Shown: positions 996-63,423 of the stretch, piece after piece | Layout of the letters: each line of letters opens with the position of its first letter | Position numbering within the stretch: position 1 is the stretch's first letter | Assembly: GCA_040384565.1 (NCBI GenBank) | Contig: JAZKJC010000023.1 | Span: 1,481-65,480 of the forward strand | DNA from: Patescibacteria group bacterium | Lineage (GTDB): Bacteria; Patescibacteriota; Saccharimonadia; Saccharimonadales; JAZKJC01 | Length of the DNA stretch: 64,000 nt | Reading direction: 5' to 3' | The notes under the pieces: model-generated | The model's database searches: none | Told to the model about the DNA's origin: nothing | What the model saw: only the letters and a program-made list of their open reading frames with translations | Position numbers and translations under genes: made by a program

Positions 996-1444
996 GATAT
1001 ACGTTTCTTTAGTTCGCTCAGTCTAGGTATAAATGATTGGGCGGCAGCTTCTAATCCCAGAACCCTCAGCGCACCAATTAGTACATACAGGCTGTCGAGC
1101 TCACCATCCGTAAGTTGAGATTTTTGTTCGGCGGCCACAAAACTAAACTCAATTTTCTCTACCAGCCATTTTTCTTCGCTTGGTTTGACTTCGTTGGTTT
1201 GGAACTTAGAAGATTCATCAGACTGAACAACTTCTAGGGAGCGGGCTGAATTTTCACGCTTTCGGATATGTCCTCTTTTTATCAAATTATTAACATGCAG
1301 AGCCACAGTCGCAACTGACGTGTAGCTGCAGCCAGCCATGATTTCCCGGTAGCTCGGGCTATAACCATGCTCAGCAATAAAAGCTTCAATAAAGGTCAGT
1401 AGTTCCCGCTGTTTTTTAGTAGGCCGGATGGGATCATTTACCAT
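992..1444 (-). CDS. LexA-type winged-helix DNA-binding protein lacking the S24 peptidase domain
   Basis: N-terminus KKQRELLTFIEAFIAEHGYSPSYREIMAGCSYTSVATVALHVNNLIKRGHIRK matches the LexA DNA-binding domain pattern. The C-terminal 70 aa has no Ser/Lys autocleavage motifs. Confidence 0.6.
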   Translation of the reverse strand: MVNDPIRPTKKQRELLTFIEAFIAEHGYSPSYREIMAGCSYTSVATVALHVNNLIKRGHIRKRENSARSLEVVQSDESSKFQTNEVKPSEEKWLVEKIEFSFVAAEQKSQLTDGELDSLYVLIGALRVLGLEAAAQSFIPRLSELKKRIS

Positions 1445-1473
1445 TGTTCATTTACCATTTTCCAATTATTTGC

Positions 1474-1719
1474 CTATTTTTCATTTTCATAAACTTTGCA
1501 GATTATCAAACTTGGGTTAAGGAGCCGCCCTGCAATAACCTCATCATCTGACCAGCCCTTTACGTCTAAAACTACTTCTGACTCAGCCCGACGTACCGAA
1601 AGTACGCCTCCCTCCTCAGAAGCAATTTTAGCTCGCAAATCATCTGGCCATATTGAGGAGGTTATTGCAGGACGGCTCCTGATGGGTTCTTGTTGTAGTT
1701 GGTTCTGGTAAATGGTCAT
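1474..1719 (-). pseudogene. Degenerate four-helix-bundle cassette: 10 codons of the gene, then hairpin element A
   Basis: The ORF starts MTIYQNQLQQ, as the intact gene at 7742 starts MTIYQTKLQQ. The remaining 'protein' is the translation of an inverted-repeat element, so it is not a credible CDS. Confidence 0.6.
1521..1679 (-). repeat. ORF-less long hairpin element A
   Basis: GGAGCCGCCCTGCAATAACCTC (1521-1542) is the reverse complement of GAGGTTATTGCAGGACGGCTCC (1658-1679) with one mismatch. That mismatch is C.A on the plus strand and G.U on the minus-strand RNA. The interior is imperfectly self-complementary around a CGTAC-CGAAA-GTACG tip. Confidence 0.7.
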
Positions 1720-1757
1720 TGGTAAATAATTGTGAATTGAAAATTGATAAATGTAAA
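1702..1757 (-). repeat. Cassette 5' flank, copy c (about 55 bp repeat family)
   Basis: The reverse complement reads TTTACATTTATCAATTTTCAATTCACAATTATTTACCAATGACCATTTACCAGAAC, near-identical to 6731-6785 and 7704-7758. Confidence 0.85.
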
Positions 1758-6692: not shown

Positions 6693-6730
6693 TCATAATA
6701 CCTTAACCAGAAGCTGGAAGCTGAAAATAT

Positions 6731-6785
6731 TTTACATTTACCATTTTTCAGTTCACAATTATTTACCAATGACCATTTACCAAAC
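6731..6785 (+). repeat. Cassette 5' flank, copy a
   Basis: 51/55 identical to 7704-7758. Contains ATG at 6771 opening a truncated ORF MTIYQTKKTS... that stops at 6855, inside the left arm of hairpin B. Confidence 0.85.
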
Positions 6786-6849
6786 TAAAAAAACTTCAAT
6801 AGCACAATTAACTACACTCAATTCACGGCTTTTACAAATGGTAATTATC

Positions 6850-7018
6850 CTATAGCAACCCCAAAACAAAACCTGTCTTTTTTGGGGTGATGGATCAGTG
6901 AGTCAAAAACTTTCATTTCCGACTAAAACATATCTGTTGATACGTTGCAGGAGGAATGGAAGTTTTTGGCCACTGAGGCGCAACCCAAAATGCAGGTTTT
7001 GTTTTGGGGTTACTATAG
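6850..7018. repeat. ORF-less long hairpin element B
   Basis: A 26-nt terminal inverted repeat: CTATAGCAACCCCAAAACAAAACCTG (6850-6875) pairs with CAGGTTTTGTTTTGGGGTTACTATAG (6993-7018). It has one mismatch, which is G.U on the minus-strand RNA. There is a second inner stem (GTGAGTCAAAAACTTTCATTTCC / GGAATGGAAGTTTTTGGCCACTGAG). The element ends 1 nt from the vapC stop codon. Confidence 0.75.
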
Positions 7019-7408
7019 CTACTGACGGGCATCGATCAGCTTAACCCCGGAGTATTTCAGAATATCACTGTCGCCTGTTATGAGCGTCAAATTCTCGCTC
7101 ATAGCCTGGGCAATCAGCATGCGGCCAAACGGATCCCTATGAATTAGTTCTAGTCCCCTCAACCCTTTGGCATGCTCAGCCTGAATAGGCAGCAGAGGTA
7201 ATTTTTGTGCTGTAACCTTTTGCTGAATATCCTCTGCCCCTTTTAGCTTACCAACTGCCAACTTTATCTCAATCTCTACAAAAGCGATAACGGATATAGC
7301 AACCTCTCCCTGTCCCGAATTTGTAAGCATACGTCGAGTGCTATGGCCCAGCTTTGAATCGTTTAGCATAAACCATATGAGTGTATGTGTATCTAATAGG
7401 TACTTCAT
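7019..7408 (-). CDS. vapC: PIN-domain toxin VapC
   Basis: 129 aa; MKYLLDTHTLIW start and C-terminal LITGDSDI are typical of PIN; 4-nt overlap with the antitoxin gene. Confidence 0.85.
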   Translation of the reverse strand: MKYLLDTHTLIWFMLNDSKLGHSTRRMLTNSGQGEVAISVIAFVEIEIKLAVGKLKGAEDIQQKVTAQKLPLLPIQAEHAKGLRGLELIHRDPFGRMLIAQAMSENLTLITGDSDILKYSGVKLIDARQ

Positions 7409-7659
7409 TCTTTAGGCTCAATTGGCCCATAAAAAAGCTCTTCAATTTCTTCATCAGTCCATTCAAAGTTATCAGGAACCTCAATTTCATCTTTCAATGC
7501 ACCAAGCAATGCACTCAGAGGTTTTGTATTATTCGATGGCTTTGTAAGCTCCGCTACCGGAGTGCCGCGGTTAGTTATAACCACACGCTCACCCTCGGCT
7601 ACTTTGGCAAGCAGCTTGGATAAGTTAGTTTTAGCATCGTGTACATTAGCTGTAATCAT
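7405..7659 (-). CDS. Phd/YefM-type antitoxin
   Basis: 84 aa; HDAKTNLSKLLAKVAEGERVVITNRGTPVAEL matches the Phd/YefM N-terminal pattern. Confidence 0.75.
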   Translation of the reverse strand: MITANVHDAKTNLSKLLAKVAEGERVVITNRGTPVAELTKPSNNTKPLSALLGALKDEIEVPDNFEWTDEEIEELFYGPIEPKE

Positions 7660-7703
7660 AATGTCATTATAGCTAACTTAGCTAAGTATGTCAATATAAA
7701 AAT

Positions 7704-7758
7704 TTTACATTTATCATTTTTCAATTCACAATTACTTATCAATGACCATTTACCAAAC
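7704..7758 (+). repeat. Cassette 5' flank, copy b
   Basis: TTTACATTTATCATTTTTCAATTCACAATTACTTATCAATGACCATTTACCAAAC; includes the start codon of the gene at 7742. Confidence 0.85.
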
Positions 7759-8104
7759 CAAACTACAGCAGCTTGAGCAGCGAACAATCAATTTTAGTGT
7801 CAATATCATAAAAACGTGTGGGAAATATTCGGGCGATGTTACTTTACGTTCACTCATTGATCAGTTAGTACGTGCTTCTACTAGTATTGGGGCTAATTAC
7901 GCGGAGGCAAACAATGCTAGCTCAAAGGCAGATTTCAAAAACAAAATATTCATCGCCAAGAAAGAAGCAGCCGAAACTCGCTACTGGCTAAGAGTATTAT
8001 CAGAACTGCTACCAAACGAGGATTTTAACGAATTATCCCAAGAAGCTCTAGAGCTTAACTTAATTCTACAAAAGATCGTAACTACAATGAACGCAGGCAA
8101 ATAA
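7742..8104 (+). CDS. Four-helix-bundle protein (23S rRNA intervening-sequence protein / Avd-like family)
   Basis: 120 aa; family hallmarks QLVRASTSIGANYAEANNASSKADFKNKIFIAKKEAAETRYWLRVL. Confidence 0.85.
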   Translation: MTIYQTKLQQLEQRTINFSVNIIKTCGKYSGDVTLRSLIDQLVRASTSIGANYAEANNASSKADFKNKIFIAKKEAAETRYWLRVLSELLPNEDFNELSQEALELNLILQKIVTTMNAGK

Positions 8105-8128
8105 TGTTCTCTATTTGGTAAATTTGAA

Positions 8129-33003: not shown

Positions 33004-33201
33004 TTAAGCTTCGAGTTTAAGGTCGTTTTCTACCATCATTTTGACTAAGCCTGGGAAGTCGACTTGGCGCTTCCAGCCTAGTTTTTGTTCGGCTTTGGTT
33101 GGATCGCCTAGAAGTAGATCTACTTCTGCGGGGCGCATGAACTCGGGGTCTTGGCGGACGTATGGCTTCCAATCATCTATGCCCTCTCCTGATCTGGCCA
33201 A
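33004..33201 (-). pseudogene. Duplicated 3' fragment of gmd
   Basis: 33020-33183 is 159/164 identical (counted by eye) to 34066-34229. It encodes WKPYVRQDPEFMRPAEVDLLLGDPTKAEQKLGW, the same as the gmd C-terminus. Confidence 0.85.
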
Positions 33202-33334: not shown

Positions 33335-34027
33335 ATGCATAAAAAAGAGTCTGGCTTTAGTGCTATAGAGGGTTTGCTAATAATAATTATTCTTGGGATG
33401 TTAGGACTAGTCAGCTGGTATGTATATAGGTCTACACACGCCACAAAGTCTACTTCTAATACTTCTGTTACAGATGCCCCCAGTCAAACCAATTTGCCAA
33501 GCGCTCCAAAATATGAAACTAAAACTTTCACTGACAGCAGCGGTAACTACAGTGTAGCTTACCCGGCCACTTGGGCAATTGCAGAATTACCAGAGCAGAG
33601 TGCCGGCTTTGCCCCACCTGTGGATGAAATTAAAGGCATCAGAATTGTGCCGCCTGACGCATCAACTCTTAATATCAATAGCCCCTTAGGTTTAATGAAT
33701 AAGAATGGCGTGAGTGTGTCTGCATTAAAGGGGTCTCTACAGGACCTTAAACAGCGCCTCACAAATGCAGAGCTGGGCGTCAGCCCTGACACTGAACCGT
33801 ATCCAAGCCAAGACTTAACTATTAACGGCTACAGCGCATCATTCTACCAAATCGAGAAAGCTGGCTACGCTGACCAATTCTATTTAATTAATCATGGCGG
33901 CATAACAGTTAAGGTGGACTTTAGATTAAAGCAAGCAGCAGGTCTGGCAGGAGTAACTGAATTCGATGAATCTAAAAATATCCCTTACTTTCAAGAGATC
34001 GCTAAATCAATAAAGTTTCTAAAATAA
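33335..34027 (+). CDS. Type IV pilin-like protein (prepilin-type N-terminal motif)
   Basis: 230 aa; KKESGFSAIEGLLIIIILGML has G/F at the cleavage site, Glu at +5 and a hydrophobic helix. Confidence 0.65.
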   Translation: MHKKESGFSAIEGLLIIIILGMLGLVSWYVYRSTHATKSTSNTSVTDAPSQTNLPSAPKYETKTFTDSSGNYSVAYPATWAIAELPEQSAGFAPPVDEIKGIRIVPPDASTLNINSPLGLMNKNGVSVSALKGSLQDLKQRLTNAELGVSPDTEPYPSQDLTINGYSASFYQIEKAGYADQFYLINHGGITVKVDFRLKQAAGLAGVTEFDESKNIPYFQEIAKSIKFLK

Positions 34028-34037
34028 TTAAGCCTTT

Positions 34038-35030
34038 TTAGTCTTTGCTGGGAGCTTCTAGGCCGAGGTCGTTTTCTACCATCATTTTGACTAGGCCTGG
34101 GAAGTCAACTTGGCGCTCCCAGCCTAGTTTTTGTTCGGCTTTGGTTGGATCGCCTAGAAGTAGATCTACTTCTGCGGGGCGCATGAACTCGGGGTCTTGG
34201 CGGACGTACGGCTTCCAATTATCTATGCCGATTTCTTTGAAAGCAAGATTCAGAAATTCCTGTATAGAATGCGTTTCGCCAGTTGCCAAGACATAATCCT
34301 CCGGCTTGTCCTGCTGCAGCATCCGCCACATACCCTCTACATAGTCTCCGGCGTAGCCCCAGTCCCGCTTGGGATCTAGGCTGCCTAGGACAATTTCTTT
34401 CTGCTTACCCAGCTTGATTCGGGCAACAGAGTTGCTGATTTTACGTGTCACAAATTCCAAGCCGCGGCGCGGACCCTCGTGGTTAAACAATATGCCGCTG
34501 CAGGCAAACATGTCATAGCTTTCACGGTAGTTAACGGTAATCCAGTGTCCGTATAGTTTGGCAACACCGTAGGGGCTGCGCGGGTGAAAGGCAGACTCTT
34601 CGTTGTAGCCTTTTTCTGGCCGGTTATAATCGAGCCCGCCAAACATTTCTGAAGTGGATGCTTGGTAAAACCTGATTGTTTTTTCACCACCGCTCAACCG
34701 GACCGCTTCCAGCATATTTAGCACGCCCTTGCCGGTGATTTCTGCCGTCAGAATTGGGTCTTTAAAAGAGTAGCCAACATGGCTAACAGCACCTAAGTTA
34801 TACACTTCATCCGGCTTAGACACTTCTATGGCTCTGATGAGTGAGGACAAATCTGTAAGGTCGGCTTCAATAAGTTTGACAAAGGGCAGCAGTTCTTCTG
34901 TCAGCCGCCGGCGCGGATTTTGTTGCCCCCGCATGATTCCGTATACTTCGTAACCTTTTTGGTGCAGTAATTCTGCTAGGTGTGAACCATCCTGACCTGT
35001 AATACCTGTGACTAGAGCGCTTTTAGCCAT
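34038..35030 (-). CDS. gmd: GDP-mannose 4,6-dehydratase
   Basis: The track ORF runs to 35063, but the likely start is MAKSALVTGITGQDGSHLAELL at 35030. The protein is a strong Gmd pattern throughout (YGVAKLYGHW, LFNHEGPRRG). Confidence 0.9.
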   Translation of the reverse strand: MAKSALVTGITGQDGSHLAELLHQKGYEVYGIMRGQQNPRRRLTEELLPFVKLIEADLTDLSSLIRAIEVSKPDEVYNLGAVSHVGYSFKDPILTAEITGKGVLNMLEAVRLSGGEKTIRFYQASTSEMFGGLDYNRPEKGYNEESAFHPRSPYGVAKLYGHWITVNYRESYDMFACSGILFNHEGPRRGLEFVTRKISNSVARIKLGKQKEIVLGSLDPKRDWGYAGDYVEGMWRMLQQDKPEDYVLATGETHSIQEFLNLAFKEIGIDNWKPYVRQDPEFMRPAEVDLLLGDPTKAEQKLGWERQVDFPGLVKMMVENDLGLEAPSKD

Positions 35031-43833: not shown

Positions 43834-43837
43834 CCCC

Positions 43838-44579
43838 TACTGTACAAGGTTGAACCTTGTACAGTATGATTAAGGCATGCCTAGCAGGAATGTAGTTAAG
43901 CAGTTTGAGGCTGATGCTATGTATCATGTCTATAACCGCGGAGTTGATAAGAGGATTATTTTTGCTGATGAACGTGATTACGCTGTTTTTCTGAGTTTTC
44001 TAAAATATGCGCTTTTATCTGATTCAGAAAAATCTAAGAAAGATGAATTTGACCCCTCCCTCCTCACTGAAGCCCAACGATTTAACCTAAGGCGAGAAGG
44101 TTTGGCAGAAAAAGTTGACCTGGTTAGTTTTTGTCTCATGCCCAACCACTTCCATCTTTTGTTGTTTCAGCATTCGCCTGATGGTATCACCAAGCTAATG
44201 CGCTCGATCATAACCGGTTACTCAATGTACTTTAATAAACGCCATAAGCGGGTTGGAAGTTTATTCCAAGGTGTTTATAAGGCTAGCCGTATTAATTCTG
44301 ATGCATATTGGTGGCACGTAAGCCGATACATACACCTTAACCCCATAGATTTGGGTACTGATTATAAGATGTATCCCTACTCTAGTTACCGGTTCTTTAC
44401 TAATAACGCCAAGGCAGAATGGGTAAAGCCAGATAGGGTATTGGGTATTTTCAAGAACATAGCCGAATATGAAAAATTTGTAACTGAATATATACCCCAC
44501 AGAAACGAACTTTTAGAAATCAAAGATGTTTTGGCCAACTCTAAAGAACTTACTGTACAAGGTTGAACCTTGTACAGTA
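43838..44579 (+). mobile_element. IS200/RAYT-like unit: Y1 transposase gene bracketed by two identical 29-nt palindromes
   Basis: TACTGTACAAGGTTGAACCTTGTACAGTA occurs at 43838-43866 and 44551-44579 (14-bp stem). Total length is 742 bp. Confidence 0.75.
43877..44566 (+). CDS. HUH Y1 transposase (IS200/IS605 TnpA / REP-associated RAYT-like)
   Basis: 229 aa; YHVYNRG, HUH motif MPNHFHLLL, Tyr motif SRYIHLNP. The stop codon TGA sits at the centre of the downstream palindrome. Confidence 0.75.
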   Translation: MPSRNVVKQFEADAMYHVYNRGVDKRIIFADERDYAVFLSFLKYALLSDSEKSKKDEFDPSLLTEAQRFNLRREGLAEKVDLVSFCLMPNHFHLLLFQHSPDGITKLMRSIITGYSMYFNKRHKRVGSLFQGVYKASRINSDAYWWHVSRYIHLNPIDLGTDYKMYPYSSYRFFTNNAKAEWVKPDRVLGIFKNIAEYEKFVTEYIPHRNELLEIKDVLANSKELTVQG

Positions 44580-44630
44580 GTAAGGCAGGTTTGTTTGTTG
44601 TAAGTTTAAGTTTGGTAGGGGCTGGGTTTG

Positions 44631-48801: not shown

Positions 48802-49893
48802 ATGAAATTACAGGTCACCCAGGAAAATCTCCACAAAGCACTTAGTAGTGTTGGCCGAGTTGCAAGTGGTAAGGGTACTTTACCGATTCTATCCAACCTT
48901 TTAATTAAAACTATCGGCAATCGACTAAGTGTCGCAGCCACAAATCTAGACATAGCAATTACTCATTTTATTGGTTCTAAGGTTAGTGATGAGGGGGCAA
49001 TCACAGTGCCAGCAAGGCTCATGGTTGATTTTGTTGCTAGCCTGCCCTCTGGGACAATTACGCTCGAACTTGATGAGACTAAATTAAAAATCACAACCGA
49101 CCAGTACGAATCAATTATTAACGGCACCAACGCGGAAGAATATCCGGTGATGCCAACAATTGCTGACGGCACCAACTGGACTGTACCGTCAAATGTGCTT
49201 AGAGCTGGGCTACAACAAGGCTTAATAGCAGCTTCGTCGGACGAGAGCCGACCAGTATTAACAGGCGTATACATGCACACACACGATAAAAAGCTTTTTC
49301 TTGTAGCTACTGACAGCTATCGATTAGCAGAAAAAACCCTTATGAAAGCCTCGGAAGATGTAAATTTATTGATTCCAGCCGGTGCATTACAGGATTTGCT
49401 AAGAATACTTACGGATGTTGAAGATGAGGTTCAGGTTACCCATAACGATCAACAAGTACTTTTTCGGGTTGGTGATGTTGAACTTGTAGCCAGGTTAATT
49501 GAGGGGAACTACCCTGATTATCGTAAGCTTATCCCAAAAACATTTGCCCATAACGCAATCCTAAAAAAGCAAGAATTTATGAACATCACAAAGGTTTCTA
49601 GCTTGTTTGCACGTGAGAGCGCTGGTAGCGTAACAATCCACTTAGACAAAGCAAAGCAGTTGGTTAGTATTAGATCAATTGCCTCGCAACTGGGCGAAAA
49701 CACCGCTTCCGCTAATGCCGTGATAGAGGGAGAGGGCGTAATTACGCTTAATTCACGCTACATCATGGATGCTTTACATGCGCTGAATGGTGACGAAGTA
49801 AAAATAGCCTTTAACGGTAAGCTAGAAGCTTGTCTACTTACCAGCCCCAAACACACAGACTACCTCCATGTAATCATGCCCCTCAAAAGCTAG
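48802..49893 (+). CDS. dnaN: DNA polymerase III beta sliding clamp
   Basis: 363 aa; three-domain clamp pattern (ATDSYRLA, EGNYPDYRKLIP), position after dnaA. Confidence 0.9.
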   Translation: MKLQVTQENLHKALSSVGRVASGKGTLPILSNLLIKTIGNRLSVAATNLDIAITHFIGSKVSDEGAITVPARLMVDFVASLPSGTITLELDETKLKITTDQYESIINGTNAEEYPVMPTIADGTNWTVPSNVLRAGLQQGLIAASSDESRPVLTGVYMHTHDKKLFLVATDSYRLAEKTLMKASEDVNLLIPAGALQDLLRILTDVEDEVQVTHNDQQVLFRVGDVELVARLIEGNYPDYRKLIPKTFAHNAILKKQEFMNITKVSSLFARESAGSVTIHLDKAKQLVSIRSIASQLGENTASANAVIEGEGVITLNSRYIMDALHALNGDEVKIAFNGKLEACLLTSPKHTDYLHVIMPLKS

Positions 49894-49936
49894 CTTTTGA
49901 ATCCGGGTAGTCCAATAGTAGGATAGCCTGATAGTC

Positions 49937-50109
49937 CTTAGAGCCTGACCCATTCCCCCTGTTCAAAGGGAAAACACCAGCAGGCAGGGAGTTTTTAGCG
50001 GTTTTTTGGCTAAAAGCATACCTAAACGGTATGGTTTTAGTTGAAAAAATGGTAAAAAGCCCTGGACCTGGTGTTTTAGCCGGACGGGGGGAATGGGTCA
50101 GGCTCTTAG
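49937..50109. repeat. ORF-less long hairpin element C
   Basis: A 23-nt terminal inverted repeat: CTTAGAGCCTGACCCATTCCCCC (49937-49959) pairs with GGGGGAATGGGTCAGGCTCTTAG (50087-50109), with one mismatch. An internal loop of about 10x9 nt follows. An imperfect inner stem of about 50 bp (AAACACCAG/CTGGTGTTT, GCATACC/GGTATGG) closes on loop TAAAC. Confidence 0.75.
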
Positions 50110-50124
50110 GGGGCGTGAGATAAT

Positions 50125-50475
50125 GTGCGTATGACGATAAAAAAGTTTGAGGATATAATTGCTTGGCAAAAAGTCAGAGAACTTAATAAAGAGTTAAATT
50201 ACTCATTTGTAGATTTGAGAAATTTTACTTTTAAGGATCAAATTCTGCGCGCCGGTCTATCAATTAACAATAATATCGCAGAAGGTTTTGAAAGAAGTGG
50301 GGATAAAGAACTTAAATATTTTCTGCATGTTGCCCGAGGTTCTGCCGCAGAGGTTCGGTCTATGCTTTATATGGCTTTGGATATGAAGTACATAGAAGAA
50401 GCCCGCTTCCAGGAACTTTACGGCCTTACAGTGGAGGTTGGTCGCTTGATTACGGGTTTTATAAAGAAGTTATGA
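50125..50475 (+). CDS. Four-helix-bundle protein (23S rRNA IVS protein / Avd-like family)
   Basis: 116 aa (likely ATG at 50131: MTIKKFEDIIAWQK). Shows the AWQKVRELNKEL, INNNIAEGFERSGDKE and ARGSAAEVRSMLY hallmarks. Confidence 0.85.
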   Translation: MRMTIKKFEDIIAWQKVRELNKELNYSFVDLRNFTFKDQILRAGLSINNNIAEGFERSGDKELKYFLHVARGSAAEVRSMLYMALDMKYIEEARFQELYGLTVEVGRLITGFIKKL

Positions 50476-50514
50476 CAATCCAACTATCCGACAATAAGAC
50501 TATTGGACTAAACC

Positions 50515-51579
50515 GTGATTTCTGATATAAGGTTACGGAACTTCCGTTCATATACGGACACGACCATTGAGTTCGGAATGGGCGTGAATATTATTGTCGG
50601 GCCTAACGCCAGCGGCAAAACAAATTTGCTGGAAGCCATCCTGGTGTTATGTCGAGGCAGTTCCTATCGGGCAAATGACCAAGAGCTTATAGCCCACAAA
50701 CAGGACTGGGGCCGATTAGATGGGCAAAACAATGGCCAACAACGTACCGTAAAATTACTAAAAAAAGGAGAATTAATACAGAAAGAATACCAAGTAGGAG
50801 GCACCACCCTTAAGCGCCTGCCCTTGCAACGTACGGTGCCAGCTGTTGTGTTTGAGCCAAATCATTTGCAGCTATTAACACAGTCACCAGACTTGCGACG
50901 TAATTTTTTAGATGATATTTTAGAACAAACAGTACCAACTTTTGGAGATATCAGGCGGCGCTACAAACGCACCTTGGCCCAACGCAACTCATTGCTAAAA
51001 CAGGAGTTTGCACCCGACCAATTGTTTGTATGGAACGTGCGGCTGAGCGAACTAGGTGACCAAATTGCCGAGCACAGGCTTAACTATATATCTCAACATA
51101 AAGCTGAGCTCACAAAACTCTACAACAAACTTGCCGGAAAAAGATACAAAATAGATATGGTTTATGAAACCAAGCATAATACCGATGCTTATGGCAGCTC
51201 CCTGTTAAAAGCCCTAGAAGCTAGAACTGCGGTCGACCGCGAACGCGGCTTTACAACCGTTGGGCCACACCGAGACGATATGGGCATCATATTAGGAGGC
51301 CACTCGCTGTCATCAGCCGCCTCGCGCGGCGAAACTCGCACAATGTTGTTGGCACTAAAGCTGCTAGAAGTCCGTAGTCTAGAAAAAGCCCGCGGCATTA
51401 AACCCATACTGTTGCTAGATGACGTTTTTAGCGAACTAGACGGCAAACGCCGCCAAGCCCTAACTGCCCATTTGCAAGGCCATCAAGCTTTCATAACCAC
51501 CACCGACGCCGACATAGTAATCCAACACTTCCTAGACAACTGCACCGTCATTCCCACAGTAAAAGAATATAAGACATAA
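50515..51579 (+). CDS. recF: DNA replication and repair protein RecF
   Basis: 354 aa, GTG start; Walker A GPNASGKTNLLEAI, signature SRGETRT, Walker B ILLLDDVFSELD. Confidence 0.9.
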   Translation: MISDIRLRNFRSYTDTTIEFGMGVNIIVGPNASGKTNLLEAILVLCRGSSYRANDQELIAHKQDWGRLDGQNNGQQRTVKLLKKGELIQKEYQVGGTTLKRLPLQRTVPAVVFEPNHLQLLTQSPDLRRNFLDDILEQTVPTFGDIRRRYKRTLAQRNSLLKQEFAPDQLFVWNVRLSELGDQIAEHRLNYISQHKAELTKLYNKLAGKRYKIDMVYETKHNTDAYGSSLLKALEARTAVDRERGFTTVGPHRDDMGIILGGHSLSSAASRGETRTMLLALKLLEVRSLEKARGIKPILLLDDVFSELDGKRRQALTAHLQGHQAFITTTDADIVIQHFLDNCTVIPTVKEYKT

Positions 51580-57147: not shown

Positions 57148-59067
57148 TTATGCGCCGGGGTACAGACGATTCTGTAGGTCTATCGTTCCCTGCGGTTGGT
57201 TGAATTCACCAGATTGCTCCATGGCCTTAATTTGGTCCGGATTGGTGGTAATAAGTCCCGCCTCTGTTGGGCTGGCTGTTATCTGTATATGCACATGGTT
57301 TTGCCCGGCAAAGAACAGCCCCTGGCCTACCGGGAATTGGCTCAGCCGCTTCTTTTCCTCGCTAGTGAGCTTGAAAGTATCTGCCAAAACATCTACGGCT
57401 GAGGGAGATTGTTTAAGCAAAATTTGCATGCTTGCGTTAGCTACAATTGCCCGGCCCATGCGTGAACCCATAAAGTCTTCAACATCTTGTGTGATGGTGG
57501 TAATGCCAAGGTTATATTTACGAGCCCGCTTAGCCAAAGAAAATAAGAAATTAGCCGAATCCTCATATTTCATCAGCTGCCAGGCTTCGTCGACTATTAA
57601 GATGCGTTTTTTCTGGTCAGATTTAGTCTTATTCCAGATAAAATTCAACACTATATACATTGCTACGGGCCGCAGTTCATCCTCCAGGTCGCGAATATTA
57701 AACACCACCAACGGATTGTTGATGTCTATATTGCTTTGCTGGCTAAAGATGCCCGCGAATGTTCCAGTAGTGTATTTGCGCAGCCTTTGAGCCAACTGTG
57801 GGCCTGTGCCACCCATATGAAGCAGCGTATCGTACAAGTCCGCGATGGTAGGTGGCTGAGAATTGTGTGTTAGTGGGTCATTAGTAATGCCGGCTTTGGC
57901 GTAAGTTTCAATTAATGAAGCATCAAGGTCAGCCTCTTCTGTTGGTGTTAGGGCTGGCGCAATCATGCTGGCGCCGCCTGTTTGGCTAGCAGCCATTTGG
58001 GCTTGAGCACCACCCATCATTAGCCTAAGCAGCCCATGCAAAGTAATTAAGTTGCTTCTTAGCGCATTGTCAGCCTCCTCAGTATCAACTACCTTGGGTA
58101 GTTCAAAGGGGTTAATGCGCACCGTTGAGTTTAGGCTTAAGCGCACATAGGCGCCACCAACGGCTTCAGCCATACGTTCGTACTCATTCTCCGGATCAAT
58201 AATAAAAATTTCTGTGCCGTACATCATGCTGCGGATGGCCTCCAGCTTAACAGTAAAGCTCTTTCCCGCGCCAGACTTGGCAAACACTACTGAATTGCCG
58301 TTTTCCAGAGAAAACCGGTCAAATATAACTAGTCCGGAATTGTGCATATTGATTCCATAGAGAATACCGTTATCTTGTGTCAAATCGGCGCTGGTAAATG
58401 GAAATGTCGTGCTGAGAGCGCCGGTGCTAAAGTTACGCTTAATCTGCAACTGATCACTAAACTGTGGAATCGTGCTGTTGAAGCCCTGCTCCTGCTGGCT
58501 GGTTGCCGGCTTAGAGTAAACCAGTTGCTGGCCCAACACTGACTCCACTTTATGAGCCACAAATTCCAGCTCGTCCATTGAAGAAGCATAGATGGTAAAG
58601 TAAATGCTAAACCGGAAAAATCTTTCCTCACCCACTTGCAACTTGTCGCGCATTTCTTCGGCGTCAATAATAGCCGCTTGTTTGCCGGGGTCACGTACTC
58701 GGCCTTTCTCTGAATCTATCTGAATTCCGGCTTCTATTTGGCTCACTTTTTTGCGCAGATTTTCCAGAACAACCTGGCTTTCCACCGGGTAAACATACAT
58801 CGATAGATCAATAACTTCGTCCAGATTAACGATGCTGGATAGCCAACCCGTAAAGACCTGATGAGGAAAACCAAAAATATAGTACGTCCGGGCAATCCTG
58901 GTACCAATCTGGAAGTGGCTGGCAGAATATTCCAAGGAACTTGGCGCGATAAAATCACGCAGCGCTGTAATGCCCTTTTGGAAAGCAATCTGCACCTCCT
59001 GTTGCTCACGCATCTGCTGCTGCTGTGCCAAACTAACCGGATCCAAAGGTTGCTTACGCTTGCTCAT
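57148..59067 (-). CDS. VirB4/TrbE-family type IV secretion ATPase
   Basis: 639 aa; Walker A FAKSGAGKSFTVK, Walker B ILIVDEAWQLM. The N-terminal domain pattern is RTYYIFGFPHQVFTGWL. Confidence 0.75.
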   Translation of the reverse strand: MSKRKQPLDPVSLAQQQQMREQQEVQIAFQKGITALRDFIAPSSLEYSASHFQIGTRIARTYYIFGFPHQVFTGWLSSIVNLDEVIDLSMYVYPVESQVVLENLRKKVSQIEAGIQIDSEKGRVRDPGKQAAIIDAEEMRDKLQVGEERFFRFSIYFTIYASSMDELEFVAHKVESVLGQQLVYSKPATSQQEQGFNSTIPQFSDQLQIKRNFSTGALSTTFPFTSADLTQDNGILYGINMHNSGLVIFDRFSLENGNSVVFAKSGAGKSFTVKLEAIRSMMYGTEIFIIDPENEYERMAEAVGGAYVRLSLNSTVRINPFELPKVVDTEEADNALRSNLITLHGLLRLMMGGAQAQMAASQTGGASMIAPALTPTEEADLDASLIETYAKAGITNDPLTHNSQPPTIADLYDTLLHMGGTGPQLAQRLRKYTTGTFAGIFSQQSNIDINNPLVVFNIRDLEDELRPVAMYIVLNFIWNKTKSDQKKRILIVDEAWQLMKYEDSANFLFSLAKRARKYNLGITTITQDVEDFMGSRMGRAIVANASMQILLKQSPSAVDVLADTFKLTSEEKKRLSQFPVGQGLFFAGQNHVHIQITASPTEAGLITTNPDQIKAMEQSGEFNQPQGTIDLQNRLYPGA

Positions 59068-59086: not shown

Positions 59087-59150
59087 CAAATCCGAAATCT
59101 GAAATCAGAAAACCGAAACAAATCCGAAATCTGAAATCAGAAAACCGAAA
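59087..59150. repeat. 2 x 32-bp tandem repeat (3' flank of cassette)
   Basis: CAAATCCGAAATCTGAAATCAGAAAACCGAAA occurs twice in perfect tandem. Confidence 0.9.
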
Positions 59151-59152
59151 CA

Positions 59153-59554
59153 TTACGCCGTGCTCCTAAGGATGGCGCCAAGAATTTTCATGATTTCAGT
59201 AGCTTCATTCAAGAGCTTCTGTTGAGCGGCTATGAACTCCGGTGGAGCAACCATAACTTCCAGCCACCAAATTGTTTCCCTAGCTTCTTTCTTTGCGATT
59301 TTTATACGCATAGCAAAGTCTTTCTTGCTAAGTGATTCATTAGCCTCAAGATAATTCGCGCCAACAGAACCCGAAGAACGAACCACTTGTTTCCCATCTT
59401 CTATGAATGCTGTTGTCTTAGGCAGCTTACTCACAAAAGAACGAACATCACGCGCAAATAATAACGCACGATCCTCCAGGTCAAACCGTTTCTGATTTCG
59501 TGCTTCGAGTTTCGTATTTGTTTCTGATTTCGTGCTTCGAGTTTCGTATTTCAT
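59153..59554 (-). CDS. Four-helix-bundle protein (23S rRNA IVS protein / Avd-like family)
   Basis: 133 aa; FDLEDRALLFARDV, SSGSVGANYLEANESLSKKDF, KKEARETIWWLEV. The first 22 aa are encoded by flank repeats. The start overlaps the upstream stop as TAATG. Confidence 0.85.
   Translation of the reverse strand: MKYETRSTKSETNTKLEARNQKRFDLEDRALLFARDVRSFVSKLPKTTAFIEDGKQVVRSSGSVGANYLEANESLSKKDFAMRIKIAKKEARETIWWLEVMVAPPEFIAAQQKLLNEATEIMKILGAILRSTA
59488..59551. repeat. 2 x 32-bp tandem repeat (5' flank of cassette, inside its N-terminal codons)
   Basis: GTTTCTGATTTCGTGCTTCGAGTTTCGTATTT occurs twice. It is an imperfect inverted counterpart of 59087-59150, sharing TTTCTGATTTC / GAAATCAGAAA. Confidence 0.9.
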
Positions 59555-60516: not shown

Positions 60517-60838
60517 CTTTATTCTTTTCCCACCTAAGAAAGTTATAATTACATCTTATTATATCAAGACAGTGAGTTAAGTGCACAGAATAGCCCATTT
60601 ATTAATTTTCAATTTTCAATTTTTCAATTTTCAATCAAGGATCAATGACTCAAATAATCCAAAAATTCGACCTGGAGGAACGGACGGCTCGTTTCGGGGA
60701 AGACGTCATTAAACTTTGTCGAACCATTAAGCAAGATGCTATTACCCGTAGTTTGGTTGATCAAGTCATACGATCGGCGACAAGTATAGGAGCTAACTAT
60801 ATGGAAGCCAATGGCGCGAGTTCTAAAAAGGATTTTCG

Positions 60839-61932
60839 AGGTTATAGGAACTTTCGTGGAGGTTTTGGCTCCTCCGTTCGGCTGTAAAGATACCACTCAA
60901 CCAGCCGTCTTTGGTGTTCTTCGCTCATGCCCCGATGTAGCTTGAGCTTGGTTCTGAGCTGGGAGTTAATACCACCCTCTACATAGTTAGTAGTTCTGGG
61001 GATTGGTTCGGTAGTTAGCGCAGTATCCAGGTAAGTGAATAATTGGTTAGTTTGCACTAGTTTCTCCAGTTGTTTGTAGGCTGAGCGTAAGCCCCTATGG
61101 GTATACCACCAGCGTCTATGACCGCTGGTTGGACTGGCAAAGTAGGTTCGCTCCCGGATGAAGCTACCGTATTGTTCCTGCCATGCCTGGAGACGTTGTT
61201 GCCACTCCAGCGATTGTTGGCTGGTCTTGACCTGCCACAAATCTCTGGTGAGTTGGAGTAGCTCCTGTCCAGCAATGGTTTGCGGATGGAGCGTGAGCTT
61301 AACCCGGATGTTCTGCCAGACATGAAACACACAACGCTGAATCCTGGTCTTTGGCCAGCACCGAACAATAGCCAGCAGGACACCTTTCTGGCCATCACAA
61401 ACGATCACTAAGGGAGCTGGCAGCCTCCCAAGCAGCAGCGACCAGGTATTCCCAGATTCCCAACCGACCCACTGCCAGGCGATAACAGCAGTTGGGGTGC
61501 GGGCTATGAGGCAGACCATACTACCAACTCGGATACCGTCAATGAGGATGATGGGGTATAGCTCACCCGTAACCTCAGGCTTTGGAGCAATCTCCCAGCA
61601 CCAGGCTGTCTGAGACCGCCAGGCGCGGTCAGTTACGCCATGGCCGAGTTCGGTCTGCGATTGTTTACCTAGCAACCAGGATACGAAGCGTTCTAGTACA
61701 AATGCCTGGCTTAAGTCAGCTCGTGGCTTGGTAGCACTGCTGGTGCAGCGCGGGCAATACCATCGTTGAGTGCCAGCAGCCGTTAAGCCACGTTTTTGTA
61801 GTTTCTTGCTGCACGTGGGACAGGCATACTTATAGGCTCTTTTTTCATACCATTAATGTCTCACGACATTAATTAAACACAAATAACAGAGGGGAATTGG
61901 TTAAAAAACCTCCACGAAATTTCCGATTAGCC
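60839..61932 (-). mobile_element. IS element (IS256/Mutator-like transposase) with 8-bp target duplication
   Basis: 1094 bp. Direct repeat GATTTTCG lies at 60831-60838 and 61933-61940. The terminal inverted repeats of about 28 bp are imperfect (..GGAACTTTCGTGGAGGTTTT / AAAACCTCCACGAAATTTCC..). Confidence 0.8.
60842..61848 (-). CDS. DDE transposase (IS256/Mutator-like), N-terminal Zn-ribbon out of frame at an A6 run
   Basis: The main ORF carries VCDGQKGVLLAIVRCWPKTRIQRCVFHVWQN and TTNYVEGGINSQLR. Upstream, the same frame encodes YACPTCSKKL...WYCPRCT. The only ATG (61848) is one frame off, across AAAAAAG (61840-61845). Confidence 0.65.
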
Positions 61933-62167
61933 GATTTTCGTAACAAAGCACATATCTGCAAAAAAGAAGCTCAGGAAACCCAGCACTGGCTCCGTATGCT
62001 AAGTGCCGCTGTACCAGAACATAAAGACGCATTACGCGTCCTGTGGCAAGAGGACCATGAATTCGTACTAATCTTCCAGAAAATAATTTCGAGTTTGAAA
62101 CAATGAAAAATGGTATTTGAATGAAAATTGATAATTGTAAATTGGAAATTCCTTTGCGCTAACTCAC

Positions 62168-62191
62168 AAGCTAATAGCTGATGGCGTATAG
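62168..62191 (+). repeat. Cassette-flank word, copy 1 (AAGCTAATAGCTGATGGCGTATAG)
   Basis: Direct repeat of 62896-62926 (AAGCTAATAGCTTGTAGCTGATGGCTTATAG). The pair brackets the PIN/RHH module. Confidence 0.7.
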
Positions 62192-62197
62192 TTCTAA

Positions 62198-62611
62198 TTA
62201 GGCCTGGTTGGGGGCTACAGTTTGCAGTAGCGGGACATGATTGAAGTGCCTATCGTTGGTTGCCAAAGTGCAAGTGTATTGTAGGCTCAAGGTTGCGATC
62301 CAGAGGTCATTCGTAGGTATTGGAGTACCCTTAAGAGCCAATTCTGCCCAAAGTCGGGCGTATATTTCTAACGTTTCATGGTTTGGGAATAGAACGGTTA
62401 CTCTTTCTGAAGCTAGAAAAGCATCTAGTTTCGCATAATTTTTAGTCATACGATTGCCTTTTTGAAAGCCAGCCCTTAGCTCGGCTACCACAATAAAAGG
62501 CATCAATATCTCACAACCACCAACCACCATTTCTTTAAGTTTGGTTGCTTTGCCCTCTATGAATTTATCGTATGAGTTAGTGTCAATGCTAACTCTTAAA
62601 TCGTTGGCCAT
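62198..62611 (-). CDS. PIN-domain toxin (VapC-like)
   Basis: 137 aa; SIDTNSY, VVAELRAG, TNDLWIA, LATNDRHF acidic/PIN motifs; overlaps the antitoxin gene. Confidence 0.8.
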   Translation of the reverse strand: MANDLRVSIDTNSYDKFIEGKATKLKEMVVGGCEILMPFIVVAELRAGFQKGNRMTKNYAKLDAFLASERVTVLFPNHETLEIYARLWAELALKGTPIPTNDLWIATLSLQYTCTLATNDRHFNHVPLLQTVAPNQA

Positions 62612-62853
62612 AGCTCTTTGTCAATCTTGTGTTGGGCATCGAACGCCTTTCGTTCCTCGGTGCCAATACCGCCACTGCCATAAAACCAATCAAGGTCGTT
62701 ATAAGTCTTGTTTTTTTCTGCTTGGCCTGTGGCCTGCTGTAGCACTTCCACTATTGTCGCGTTAAAGCTTTGCCCCTGTTTCCGGGCACGCCGGCGCAAA
62801 ACCTTATCAACGGGCTCCGGAATATTACGAATGGTATATTGTATACTACTCAT
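62596..62853 (-). CDS. Ribbon-helix-helix antitoxin (VapB/FitA-like)
   Basis: The likely start is MSSIQYTIRNIPEPVDKVLRRRARKQGQSFNATIVEVL (the track ORF extends to 62892). The beta-strand plus two helices pattern fits RHH. Confidence 0.65.
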   Translation of the reverse strand: MSSIQYTIRNIPEPVDKVLRRRARKQGQSFNATIVEVLQQATGQAEKNKTYNDLDWFYGSGGIGTEERKAFDAQHKIDKELWPTI

Positions 62854-62895
62854 GTAGGCAGTATACATAATATGTATGCATAAGTCAAGCAAAAG

Positions 62896-62926
62896 AAGCT
62901 AATAGCTTGTAGCTGATGGCTTATAG
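62896..62926 (+). repeat. Cassette-flank word, copy 2
   Basis: See 62168-62191. It is followed by a 17-codon four-helix-bundle gene stub. Confidence 0.7.
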
Positions 62927-62943
62927 CAGTTAAAATAGAGGCA

Positions 62944-63045: not shown

Positions 63046-63423
63046 GTGCGGTACAATTGGCTTATGAAAGGACACTCATTTCGGGATATTATTGCGTGGC
63101 AAAAAGCGCATAGCCTTTGTGTCGATATTTATAAAATTTTAGCCAGTAATAAAGATTTTTCTTACAGGGATCAAATACAGCGTGCGGCTGTATCCATAAT
63201 GAATAATATTGCCGAAGGACATTCCAGAAGGAGCGACAAATCGTTCCGAAACCTTCTGCTCATAGCTAAGGGTTCGGCCGCAGAAGTTGAATCTATGCTT
63301 GAACTTGGGAAAAGCTTGGGGTACTTCACCTCAATTCAACACGAAGACCTCACCCAAAGAGTTGACGAAATTTCTCGTCTAATAACTGGCCTGGTTAAAT
63401 TCCTAGAAACCCGCCAGCCCTAG
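63046..63423 (+). CDS. Four-helix-bundle protein (23S rRNA IVS protein / Avd-like family)
   Basis: 125 aa; FRDIIAWQKAHSL, IMNNIAEGHSRRSDKSF, AKGSAAEVESML. Flanked by TGAGAGGTGAG (63009-63019) and CTCATCTCTCA (63442-63452). Confidence 0.85.
   Translation: MRYNWLMKGHSFRDIIAWQKAHSLCVDIYKILASNKDFSYRDQIQRAAVSIMNNIAEGHSRRSDKSFRNLLLIAKGSAAEVESMLELGKSLGYFTSIQHEDLTQRVDEISRLITGLVKFLETRQP

Follow-up and report, generated by a model that had tools for sequence, protein, structure and literature searches.

RPE and enterobacterial ERIC elements are palindromic over their full length of 100–170 bp, several distinct families may coexist in one reduced genome, and Rickettsia RPEs lie in frame inside genes and are annotated as protein. 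Salmonella has short intervening sequences (IVSs) of 23S rRNA that lack an open reading frame (ORF), and to our knowledge the origin and mobility of rRNA IVSs have been unexplained since 1990. Correia elements, miniature transposable elements with inverted repeats (MITEs) of Neisseria, are non-coding units of ~100–200 bp with terminal inverted repeats of ~26 bp, located in intergenic DNA and in genes; they are transcribed along with their surroundings, RNase III cuts or binds them where the repeats pair, and transcripts of prokaryotic MITEs form stable stem-loops, while the direct repeats fade with age (PMC10969869, PMC2649163). The IVS of Coxiella has a 28-bp terminal stem with one mismatch and is cut by RNase III (PMC4990558), and in Saccharibacteria, 64 of 66 insertions in rRNA do not exceed 250 bp and have neither ORF nor intron (PMC11270868). 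Here we analyze three hairpin elements, A, B and C, in a stretch of 64,000 nucleotides (the window; positions 1,481 to 65,480 of contig JAZKJC010000023.1, assembly GCA_040384565.1) from a bacterium of the Saccharimonadales (Saccharibacteria, TM7), to which a preliminary description had drawn attention. We suggest that they are probably three different, low-copy, non-coding palindromic insertions of the Correia/ERIC/RPE type, co-transcribed as double-stranded RNA (dsRNA) rods of ~70 bp that are likely substrates of RNase III.

An inverted-repeat scan of the entire window (seed 11, arms at most 400 nt apart) returned 1520–1546/1654–1680, 6850–6881/6987–7018 and 49936–49962/50084–50110 as the top three inverted pairs and, besides these, two weak 75% pairs and one 16-nt palindrome. 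A, B and C are the sole strong local inverted repeats of the window, and the coordinates first given for them were correct within 1 bp. Each is predicted to fold into a single rod of 64–72 pairs with an apical loop of 3–5 nt, far beyond shuffled controls (z-scores −12.8 to −13.8, with no shuffle reaching the native fold energy; Table 1), in line with the common architecture that had been ascribed to the three elements of 161–175 nt. Equally, they had been said to lack a common primary sequence, and local alignment scores among them fell within the shuffle distribution in both orientations; blastn detected no further copies within the window. Hairpins A and C contain a stop-free frame on each strand, for which a joint probability of ~3% is expected for shuffled palindromes. 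These open frames are by-products of the palindrome, with homologues confined to the element itself, and no credible gene was found inside the hairpins. An origin as fold-back copies of neighboring sequence or of the genes described next was ruled out by tblastn and blastn.

All three hairpins of the window lie in cassettes of genes encoding a four-helix-bundle (4HB) protein (PF05635, '23S rRNA IVS protein'; TIGR02436), a relative of Avd, the accessory protein of diversity-generating retroelements. The window contains five such genes plus two remnants, one at A and one at B; the 4HB cassettes bear a resemblance to rRNA IVSs. Both A and B are preceded by a flank of 56–67 nt that shares 90–93% identity with the one preceding the intact 4HB gene at 7742 (for cassette A, repeats at 6727–6782 and 7704–7770, 90–93% identity), and the flank common to the three carries a promoter-like TTTACA-17-CACAAT that ends 9–10 nt before the ATG and lies 39 and 81 nt upstream of A and B, respectively. 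As the preliminary description had it, A and B directly follow this flank and the first MTIYQ... codons; A keeps 13 codons (MTIYQNQLQQEPI), matching the 4HB N-terminus in tblastn, and B keeps ~27. In cassette A both ends of the 4HB gene are retained and ~85 middle codons are gone: ORF 1474–1719, which spans the hairpin, ends in ...LIICKVYENEK, compared to ...LILQKIVTTMNAGK in the intact gene. We infer that the gap arose by a one-sided adjacent deletion after insertion. Hairpin B is abutted by the stop codon of a vapC gene, and the predicted vapBC transcript enters B on the minus strand. Hairpin C is located between a cassette 5′ flank and the leader/promoter of a PF05635 gene (Pfam E=2e-27) that is intact, as had been stated, and whose extended −10 sits 6 nt before the ATG. 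The cassette of the intact reference gene 7742–8104 (PF05635, E=5e-20; TIGR02436) falls into repeat families D5/I1.

In predicted folds, the 5′ and 3′ flanks of the cassettes can pair around the gene. The flanks of cassette A pair around the hairpin in the fold of 1436–1765, and those of cassette C form an inverted pair (49908–49935/50483–50510; 28 nt, 79%), the outer stem being present in the minimum free energy (MFE) fold of 49890–50530. Duplex energies exceeded those of shuffles significantly in about half of the cassettes, in a test in which the flanks are complementary in composition, shuffles pair too, and the coordinates of two window cassettes were unsuitable. We regard flank pairing as context rather than result.

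Hairpin C resides in the dnaN-recF spacer, which could be compared across 80 dnaN loci of other Saccharibacteria (best DnaN 85% identical), 74 of them with a readable spacer. It was present in none of the 74. In the 15 loci whose DnaN is at least 72% identical to that of the window, only 17–31 nt separate dnaN and recF; nine more distant loci contain a 4HB cassette in the spacer (gap 397–518 nt), and at least five contain an ORF-less structured insert of 90–140 nt. Moreover, locus L070 bears an orthologous 4HB cassette (protein 70% identical) with the same leader, CGTGAGATAAT...GTATGACGATA, and no hairpin between flank and leader. As C is missing from the related spacers and from the L070 cassette, it is an insertion; all three hairpins are inserted elements rather than conserved RNA genes.

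Other hairpins were found at corresponding places in relatives. The dnaN-recF spacer of L073 contains a different hairpin of 107 nt (−66 kcal/mol), L035, L062 and L051 have a common hairpin family there, the inner part of which is inverted in L051, and L005 and L079 carry hairpins upstream of dnaA. The spacer, 13–30 nt long, is a recurrent insertion hot spot across Saccharibacteria, and the 4HB cassettes at the nine loci have at least three different flank families. In empty spacers of the relatives, TACAAT precedes the recF ATG by 6–8 nt, and a −10-like box (TACAAT/GATAAT/TATAAT) lies 6–10 nt before the starts of recF, 4HB genes and vapB (window 50116–50133, 6754–6771 and 7666–7659). Since these boxes sit so close to the starts, near-leaderless starts seem to be the rule, which suggests that leaderless or near-leaderless mRNAs are common in the lineage.

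Hairpin A is a discrete unit, repeated at two loci of the same metagenome-assembled genome (MAG). The window ORF that runs across A encodes the same sequence as NCBI protein MES2971791, and a search of 5.8 billion proteins yielded a single relative, P0001, whose cluster also contains P0002, identical to the window ORF; P0001 and P0002 share the locus-tag prefix V4702 and are encoded on different contigs. The similarity between P0001 and the window ORF covers exactly RSRPAITSS...VIAGRLL, 54 codons that run from the first to the last base of the hairpin. The flanks of the second copy are unrelated to those of the first, with the peptide MKKL before (the 5′ flank being known as this peptide only), whereas on the 3′ side a small membrane ORF is succeeded by an ATP-grasp gene. 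A full HMMER search with the A peptide returned nothing beyond this second copy, and in a metagenome scan with the same peptide, the matches listed included only a chance match (L087) that is not a hairpin. A metagenome contig from a separate assembly (L088; 2.9 kb) is 99.9% identical to the window through the last base of A and continues into the flank of copy 2; it represents either a recombinant or an assembler's jump between the two copies. Seven nucleotide differences were inferred between the copies. Two lie in loops and five in pairs, and all five of the latter keep pairing, by changing G-U to G-C or A-U to G-U. NCBI lists the two copies as hypothetical proteins, MES2971791 and MES2971216, and both entries are spurious gene calls from a palindromic element. 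The earlier statement that the hairpins all lie in cassette frames thus applies to the three in the window but fails for the second copy of A, because its 3′ flank is not cassette sequence.

These observations bear on the impression, given in the preliminary description for A and B, that the hairpin replaced the ORF, and on a reading in which the hairpins are the ORF-less form of an IVS-type cassette: selfish, bounded by a terminal stem, excised by RNase III, derived from cassettes by gene loss or forming a parallel lineage, and distinct from transposon-type MITEs. The location of the three window hairpins in cassette frames, the ability of cassette flanks to pair around the gene, the occupation of the relatives' spacer by either a 4HB cassette or an ORF-less insert, and the IVS precedents from Coxiella and Saccharibacteria (PMC4990558, PMC11270868) fit such a scheme. 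However, the hairpins are full palindromes up to the apical loop and not two leftover flanks; their arms show normal sequence complexity, whereas the cassette flanks are of low complexity and strand-skewed composition; and no part of them resembles the 4HB gene. In addition, C coexists with an intact gene plus its promoter and is absent from the L070 cassette, and copy 2 of A is followed by the membrane ORF and ATP-grasp gene. We therefore consider this origin unlikely, and decayed cassette stems were likewise rejected, as pairing continues to each hairpin tip.

The likeness to 23S rRNA IVSs nevertheless extends to a terminal stem of 20–30 bp with a single mismatch, sporadic occurrence among close relatives and the association with PF05635. 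IVSs, however, lie in rRNA helices 25 or 45 and have interiors that are not palindromic to the tip, whereas A, B and C occupy mRNA spacers. RNase III excision is presumed for IVSs (PMC4990558), and the terminal stems of the present elements are predicted substrates of the enzyme. Membership among the 23S rRNA IVSs was rejected, given that the elements lie between or inside protein-gene cassettes and that Rfam detected no rRNA, the defining location of IVSs, in the window. Analogy with ORF-less rRNA IVSs is a fair description of how the RNAs may behave, not of what the elements are. A broader version, in which hairpins and 4HB cassettes are two forms of one mobile system that acts outside rRNA and is defined by structure rather than sequence, appears quite doubtful. 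Its elements would be recognized as hairpins and would settle in the same hot spots, namely between dnaN and recF, upstream of dnaA and within one another, with the 4HB protein as a nucleic-acid-binding factor for their spread or processing. If it were true, Saccharibacteria would show IVS-type elements caught in the act, and the origin and mobility of IVSs would become testable.

Whether the hairpins exist as assembled can be judged from short-read Logan contigs (k=31) of SRR26324625 (loci L001, L002, L089, L090 and L091). Misassembly is known to arise from long inverted repeats, and the short-read contigs do break at the hairpins; fold-back chimeras introduced during MAG building are nonetheless hardly credible, as the Logan contigs reproduce both junctions of C, the right junction of B and the right junction of A copy 2 exactly, hairpin A is present in full, at 99.9% identity, in a separate NCBI assembly, and the stems are imperfect with a directional G-U pattern (see below) and are not copies of adjacent sequence. 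The breaks themselves are informative. One Logan contig has its two ends, at 1707 and 6781, exactly 30 nt (k−1) inside an exact 31-nt repeat of the cassette flank, and a contig end also lies exactly 30 nt from the base that separates the two copies of A. Since Logan contigs thus end 30 nt inside repeats, the positions of their ends serve to map repeated sequence. Accordingly, a contig start at 6982 in B indicates a repeated block ending at 7011, and a contig end at 49990 and a start at 50077 in C indicate a repeated block from 49961 to 50106. The block edges in B and C coincide with stem mismatch or wobble positions, as expected if a more perfect palindrome has given rise to the copies by point changes. 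The contig ends thus suggest that the interiors of B and C are repeated in the SRR26324625 sample. If the breaks were caused by in-place inversion (flip-flop), those on the right-hand side would be accounted for, but not the left-hand break of C at 49990.

A transition in a perfect palindrome creates a G-U pair on one strand and an A·C mismatch on the other, with equal odds. With sense defined as the cassette's own direction (the minus strand for A, the plus strand for C), in which the flanking genes also run, there are eight sense and no antisense G-U pairs in A and six sense and none antisense in C (together 14:0; p=6e-5 at even odds, <1e-3 at 60:40 odds), compared to four versus three on the two strands of B. 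Mutation bias is not the cause, because third-codon-position skews of the neighboring genes are too small and, at C, run in the opposite direction. Since the G-U pairs of A and C fall almost entirely on the sense strand, we conclude that the fold is under strand-specific selection on the transcribed strand, transcription itself being predicted from sequence. The lack of strand preference in B fits this notion, because two promoter-like sites face B from opposite sides, that of the cassette on the plus strand and that of vapBC, a perfect consensus, on the minus strand, so that both strands are predicted to be transcribed. The single mismatch of the terminal stem had been noted to be G-U on the minus strand in A and B, which is correct; over the whole stem, however, the minus strand is favored in A, the plus strand in C and neither in B. 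The idea of function as minus-strand RNA accordingly gives way to a preference for the locally transcribed strand.

Selection on the fold, suggested by the strand-specific wobble pairs, would also be expected of genes dedicated to a regulatory or structural RNA (a 6S-like, antitoxin-like or other small RNA) that are expressed from the cassette promoter and conserved for a function in trans. The conserved promoter-like site and near-leaderless start that lie upstream of A and B would suit such genes. Yet none of the elements is conserved across the 80 related loci, their sequences are unrelated, C is not downstream of the cassette promoter, and A also occurs in a second, unrelated context. Moreover, Rfam at gathering score gave zero matches in the whole window, and a search at E<=5 with permissive filters gave nothing on A or B and only IMES-3 on C (E=0.54; 18.6 bits, compared to a gathering score of 55), so that the 6S-like or other known small RNAs considered earlier find no counterpart here. 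Such RNA genes are thus very improbable. Neither tRNA nor tmRNA genes were found, and no terminator-like site with a U tract is present at the 3′ ends of the hairpins, the lone match being an apical mini-hairpin inside C; intrinsic terminators were therefore discarded as an explanation.

The wobble pattern could alternatively reflect selection at the level of DNA. In such a model, each element would form a single-stranded DNA (ssDNA) hairpin on the lagging-strand template, be used by an HUH/Y1 transposase (IS200/IS605, RAYT) or in attC-like recombination, and move without target duplication. Because genes run with replication and the cumulative GC skew turns near 44–47 kb, next to dnaA, the favored strand of A and C is also the lagging-strand template, if oriC lies near 46.5–47.1 kb, between rnpA and dnaA. 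DNA energy parameters yield the same strand asymmetry as RNA parameters, target duplication is not evident, and a gene for a RAYT-like Y1 transposase, with the same palindrome on either side, is present in the genome. The bases just 5′ of the elements on the favored strand, ...ATC (A copy 1), ...ATC (B) and ...GTC (C), are reminiscent of the fixed 5′ target of IS200/IS605 elements, although a three-base motif from three sites is weak evidence. On the other hand, the palindromes next to the Y1 gene share nothing with A, B and C; attC core sites are absent from the ends of all three, and there is no integrase among the 53 window ORFs scanned. Furthermore, B is on the same replichore as A, yet has no minus-strand preference, and in this respect argues mildly against selection on an ssDNA hairpin. 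Altogether, we find movement as DNA hairpins improbable.

Two established systems that would fall under this heading were rejected individually. For integron attC sites, not only are RYYYAAC/GTTRRRY core sites lacking (neither strand has GTTRRRY at its 3′ terminus), as well as an integrase among the ORFs scanned, but the elements measure 161–175 bp, compared to 57–141 bp. REPINs resemble A, B and C in being long imperfect intergenic hairpins without target duplication, and the window does contain a RAYT-like gene with palindromes; a REPIN, however, combines two copies of the REP bordering its RAYT, is shorter and usually numerous, and the 29–31 nt RAYT-flanking palindrome CTACTGTACAAGGTTGAACCTTGTACAGTAG occurs only at 43837 and 44551, with no match in A, B or C.

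In behavior, the closest relatives are the Correia, ERIC and RPE palindromic elements, in agreement with the MITE-like reading that had been listed among the alternatives and is the one that the present data favor. The elements are short (161–175 bp) and non-coding, have terminal repeats of 22–26 bp with one mismatch, and, in the case of A, occupy two loci of the same MAG. Hairpin A resembles RPEs in being stop-free in one frame per strand, with both copies annotated as hypothetical proteins. The size, terminal repeats, non-coding nature and intergenic or genic location of Correia elements are likewise shared, and their ability to invert in place (PMC10969869, PMC2649163) is a further likeness. 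They constitute one sequence family, however, which numbers over 100 copies and duplicates TA at its target, whereas the window holds three unrelated sequences with one to two known copies and no unambiguous duplication. In a comparison of the ends, with no database search aimed at it, Correia repeats show no similarity to A, B and C. Compared to ERIC and RPE elements, there is no sequence relationship, the phylum is different, copies are far fewer, and the elements lie in selfish 4HB cassettes rather than in housekeeping genes. What distinguishes A, B and C from all three groups is that unrelated sequences share one build, occur in very few copies, show no demonstrable duplication and reside inside cassettes of IVS-type proteins.

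Several observations weigh against classing A, B and C as palindromic insertions of this type. Copy number is very low: A has two copies, and direct searches revealed no further copy of either B or C. Six-frame peptides of B and C, concatenated into one query that sees only copies called as genes, gave no match; scans of viral contigs with one arm per hairpin gave single-arm chance matches only, and phage and plasmid collections gave no match to the hairpins. No clear target-site duplication was found at A, B or C, and copy 1 of A lacks one 5′ of the hairpin. The ends of B (CTATAG...CTATAG) and of C (CTTAG...CTTAG) could represent either TA/TNA duplications or a continuation of the palindrome; because these ends are palindromic, duplication and inverted-repeat extension look alike. 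No transposase with matching ends was found in the window, where the only transposase genes are an IS256-type fragment and the RAYT-like Y1 gene, both with ends that differ from those of A, B and C, and three unrelated end sequences would need three transposases or one structure-specific enzyme. Finally, the wobble asymmetry is equally expected for an ssDNA hairpin on the lagging-strand template.

Palindromic insertion nonetheless remains our preferred explanation. Each hairpin would have landed in a dispensable 4HB cassette, in the case of A with a subsequent adjacent deletion of the middle of the 4HB gene; in a gene-dense genome, these cassettes are possibly the safest landing sites, and a third one has been hit by an insertion sequence (IS). 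Each element would then be co-transcribed with its surroundings, C as part of the dnaN 3′ region, and fold into one rod of ~65–72 base pairs. The near-perfect terminal helix of 22–26 bp may serve as a substrate of RNase III, a proposal we make because such cleavage is documented for Correia elements and rRNA IVSs; the RNase III substrates envisaged in the preliminary description are plausible in view of the predicted dsRNA rods. No rnc gene was present among the window ORFs scanned. The rod might be cleaved or act as a 3′-end or insulator structure, separating dnaN from 4HB-recF at C, a GtrA gene from a LexA-like gene, and the cassette promoter from vapBC; insertion would be tolerated because the rod separates neighboring transcription units.

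If this explanation is correct, the reduced, gene-dense genomes of Saccharibacteria carry low-copy palindromic mobile elements that break short-read assemblies, are mis-annotated as proteins and probably reshape operon transcripts. Palindromic elements of this kind are known; the phylum and the setting in IVS-protein cassettes are apparently new, as the literature we searched contained no description of such elements in Saccharibacteria or Patescibacteria. The point most worth following is the combination of a common hot spot with the association of cassettes and hairpins. At dnaN-recF, empty, gene-bearing and hairpin-only states of one site provide a tractable comparative system, in which one could ask how IVS-type elements arise and move, and whether processing by RNase III makes them tolerable.

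Table 1. Hairpin elements, surrounding cassettes and 4HB genes of the window
Feature	Position	Strand	Description	Basis	Predicted fold (MFE)
Hairpin A, copy 1	1520..1680	sense (−)	161-nt palindromic element; 23-bp terminal stem with one G-U	inverted-repeat scan, folds	− strand −97.7 kcal/mol, z −12.8; + strand −65.1 kcal/mol
Hairpin B	6850..7018		169-nt palindromic element; 26-bp terminal stem, one C·A / G-U mismatch	inverted-repeat scan, folds	+ strand −91.3 kcal/mol, z −13.8; − strand −83.3 kcal/mol
Hairpin C	49936..50110	sense (+)	175-nt palindromic element; 20-bp perfect terminal stem extended by CTTAG/CTTAG	inverted-repeat scan, folds	+ strand −106 kcal/mol, z −13.7; − strand −84 kcal/mol
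Cassette A, 5′ frame	1681..1757	−	promoter-like TTTACA-17-CACAAT (1757->1729), near-leaderless ATG 1719, first 13 4HB codons		
Cassette A, 3′ frame	1436..1519	−	last ~15 4HB codons (stop 1474–1476), then 3′ flank pairing with 5′ flank		
Cassette B, 5′ frame	6725..6849	+	promoter-like TTTACA-17-CACAAT (6731–6759), ATG 6769, ~27 codons of decayed 4HB gene		
vapBC-type toxin-antitoxin pair	7019..7694	−	PIN + Phd/YefM; consensus TTGACA-17-TATAAT promoter (7694->7666)	Pfam	
Intact reference cassette, A/B type	7698..8128	+	same 5′ flank and promoter, 4HB gene 7742–8104, 3′ flank		
Cassette C, 5′ flank	49894..49935	+	pairs with 3′ flank, enclosing hairpin C and 4HB gene		
Cassette C, body	50111..50514	+	extended −10 TGaGATAAT (50116–50124), near-leaderless 4HB gene 50131–50475, 3′ flank reaching recF start		
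4HB gene	7742–8104	+	intact		
4HB gene	50131–50475	+	intact		
4HB gene	59153–59554	−	intact		
4HB gene	60645–62106	+	split by IS256-type element		
4HB gene	63046–63423	+	intact		

The remaining cassettes of the window show insertions and repeats of their own. The split 4HB gene is divided into residues ~11–67 (60672–60842) and 63–116 (61930–62097) by an insert of ~1.09 kb with 23-nt terminal inverted repeats (60844–60866/61905–61927), which encodes a truncated IS256/Mutator-type transposase on the minus strand (60842–61675). The 4HB gene at 59153–59554 is bracketed by two tandem 32-nt units per side (59087–59150 and 59488–59551), the two sides being 75% complementary and the upstream pair being translated as the N-terminus of the annotated ORF; this cassette lies inside a type IV secretion-like gene row (TraG/VirB4-type ATPase, 57148–59067). 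Between two 4HB cassettes, a PIN + FitA-like antitoxin pair (62198–62892, minus strand; window 62160–62930) has on either side a direct repeat, AAGCTAATAGCT..GATGGC.TATAG, similar to the flanks of the cassettes at loci L040 and L042. The pair is thus, as is vapBC beside hairpin B, a toxin-antitoxin module lodged among cassettes.

Further repeats were observed outside the cassettes. The RAYT-like Y1 (IS200-type) transposase gene at 43877–44566 matches Pfam Y1_Tnp, with a REP-associated tyrosine transposase as the best NCBIfam model, below cut-off; it is flanked on both sides by the perfect 29–31 nt palindrome (window 43837–44580), and gene and palindromes together look like a REP/RAYT unit in a Saccharibacteria genome. 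Two 177-nt direct repeats (33007–33183 and 34053–34229; 94% identical), each with the palindrome AGAAGTAGATCTACTTCT, flank a 230-residue ORF without Pfam match (33335–34027), and a Logan contig boundary falls within the second repeat.

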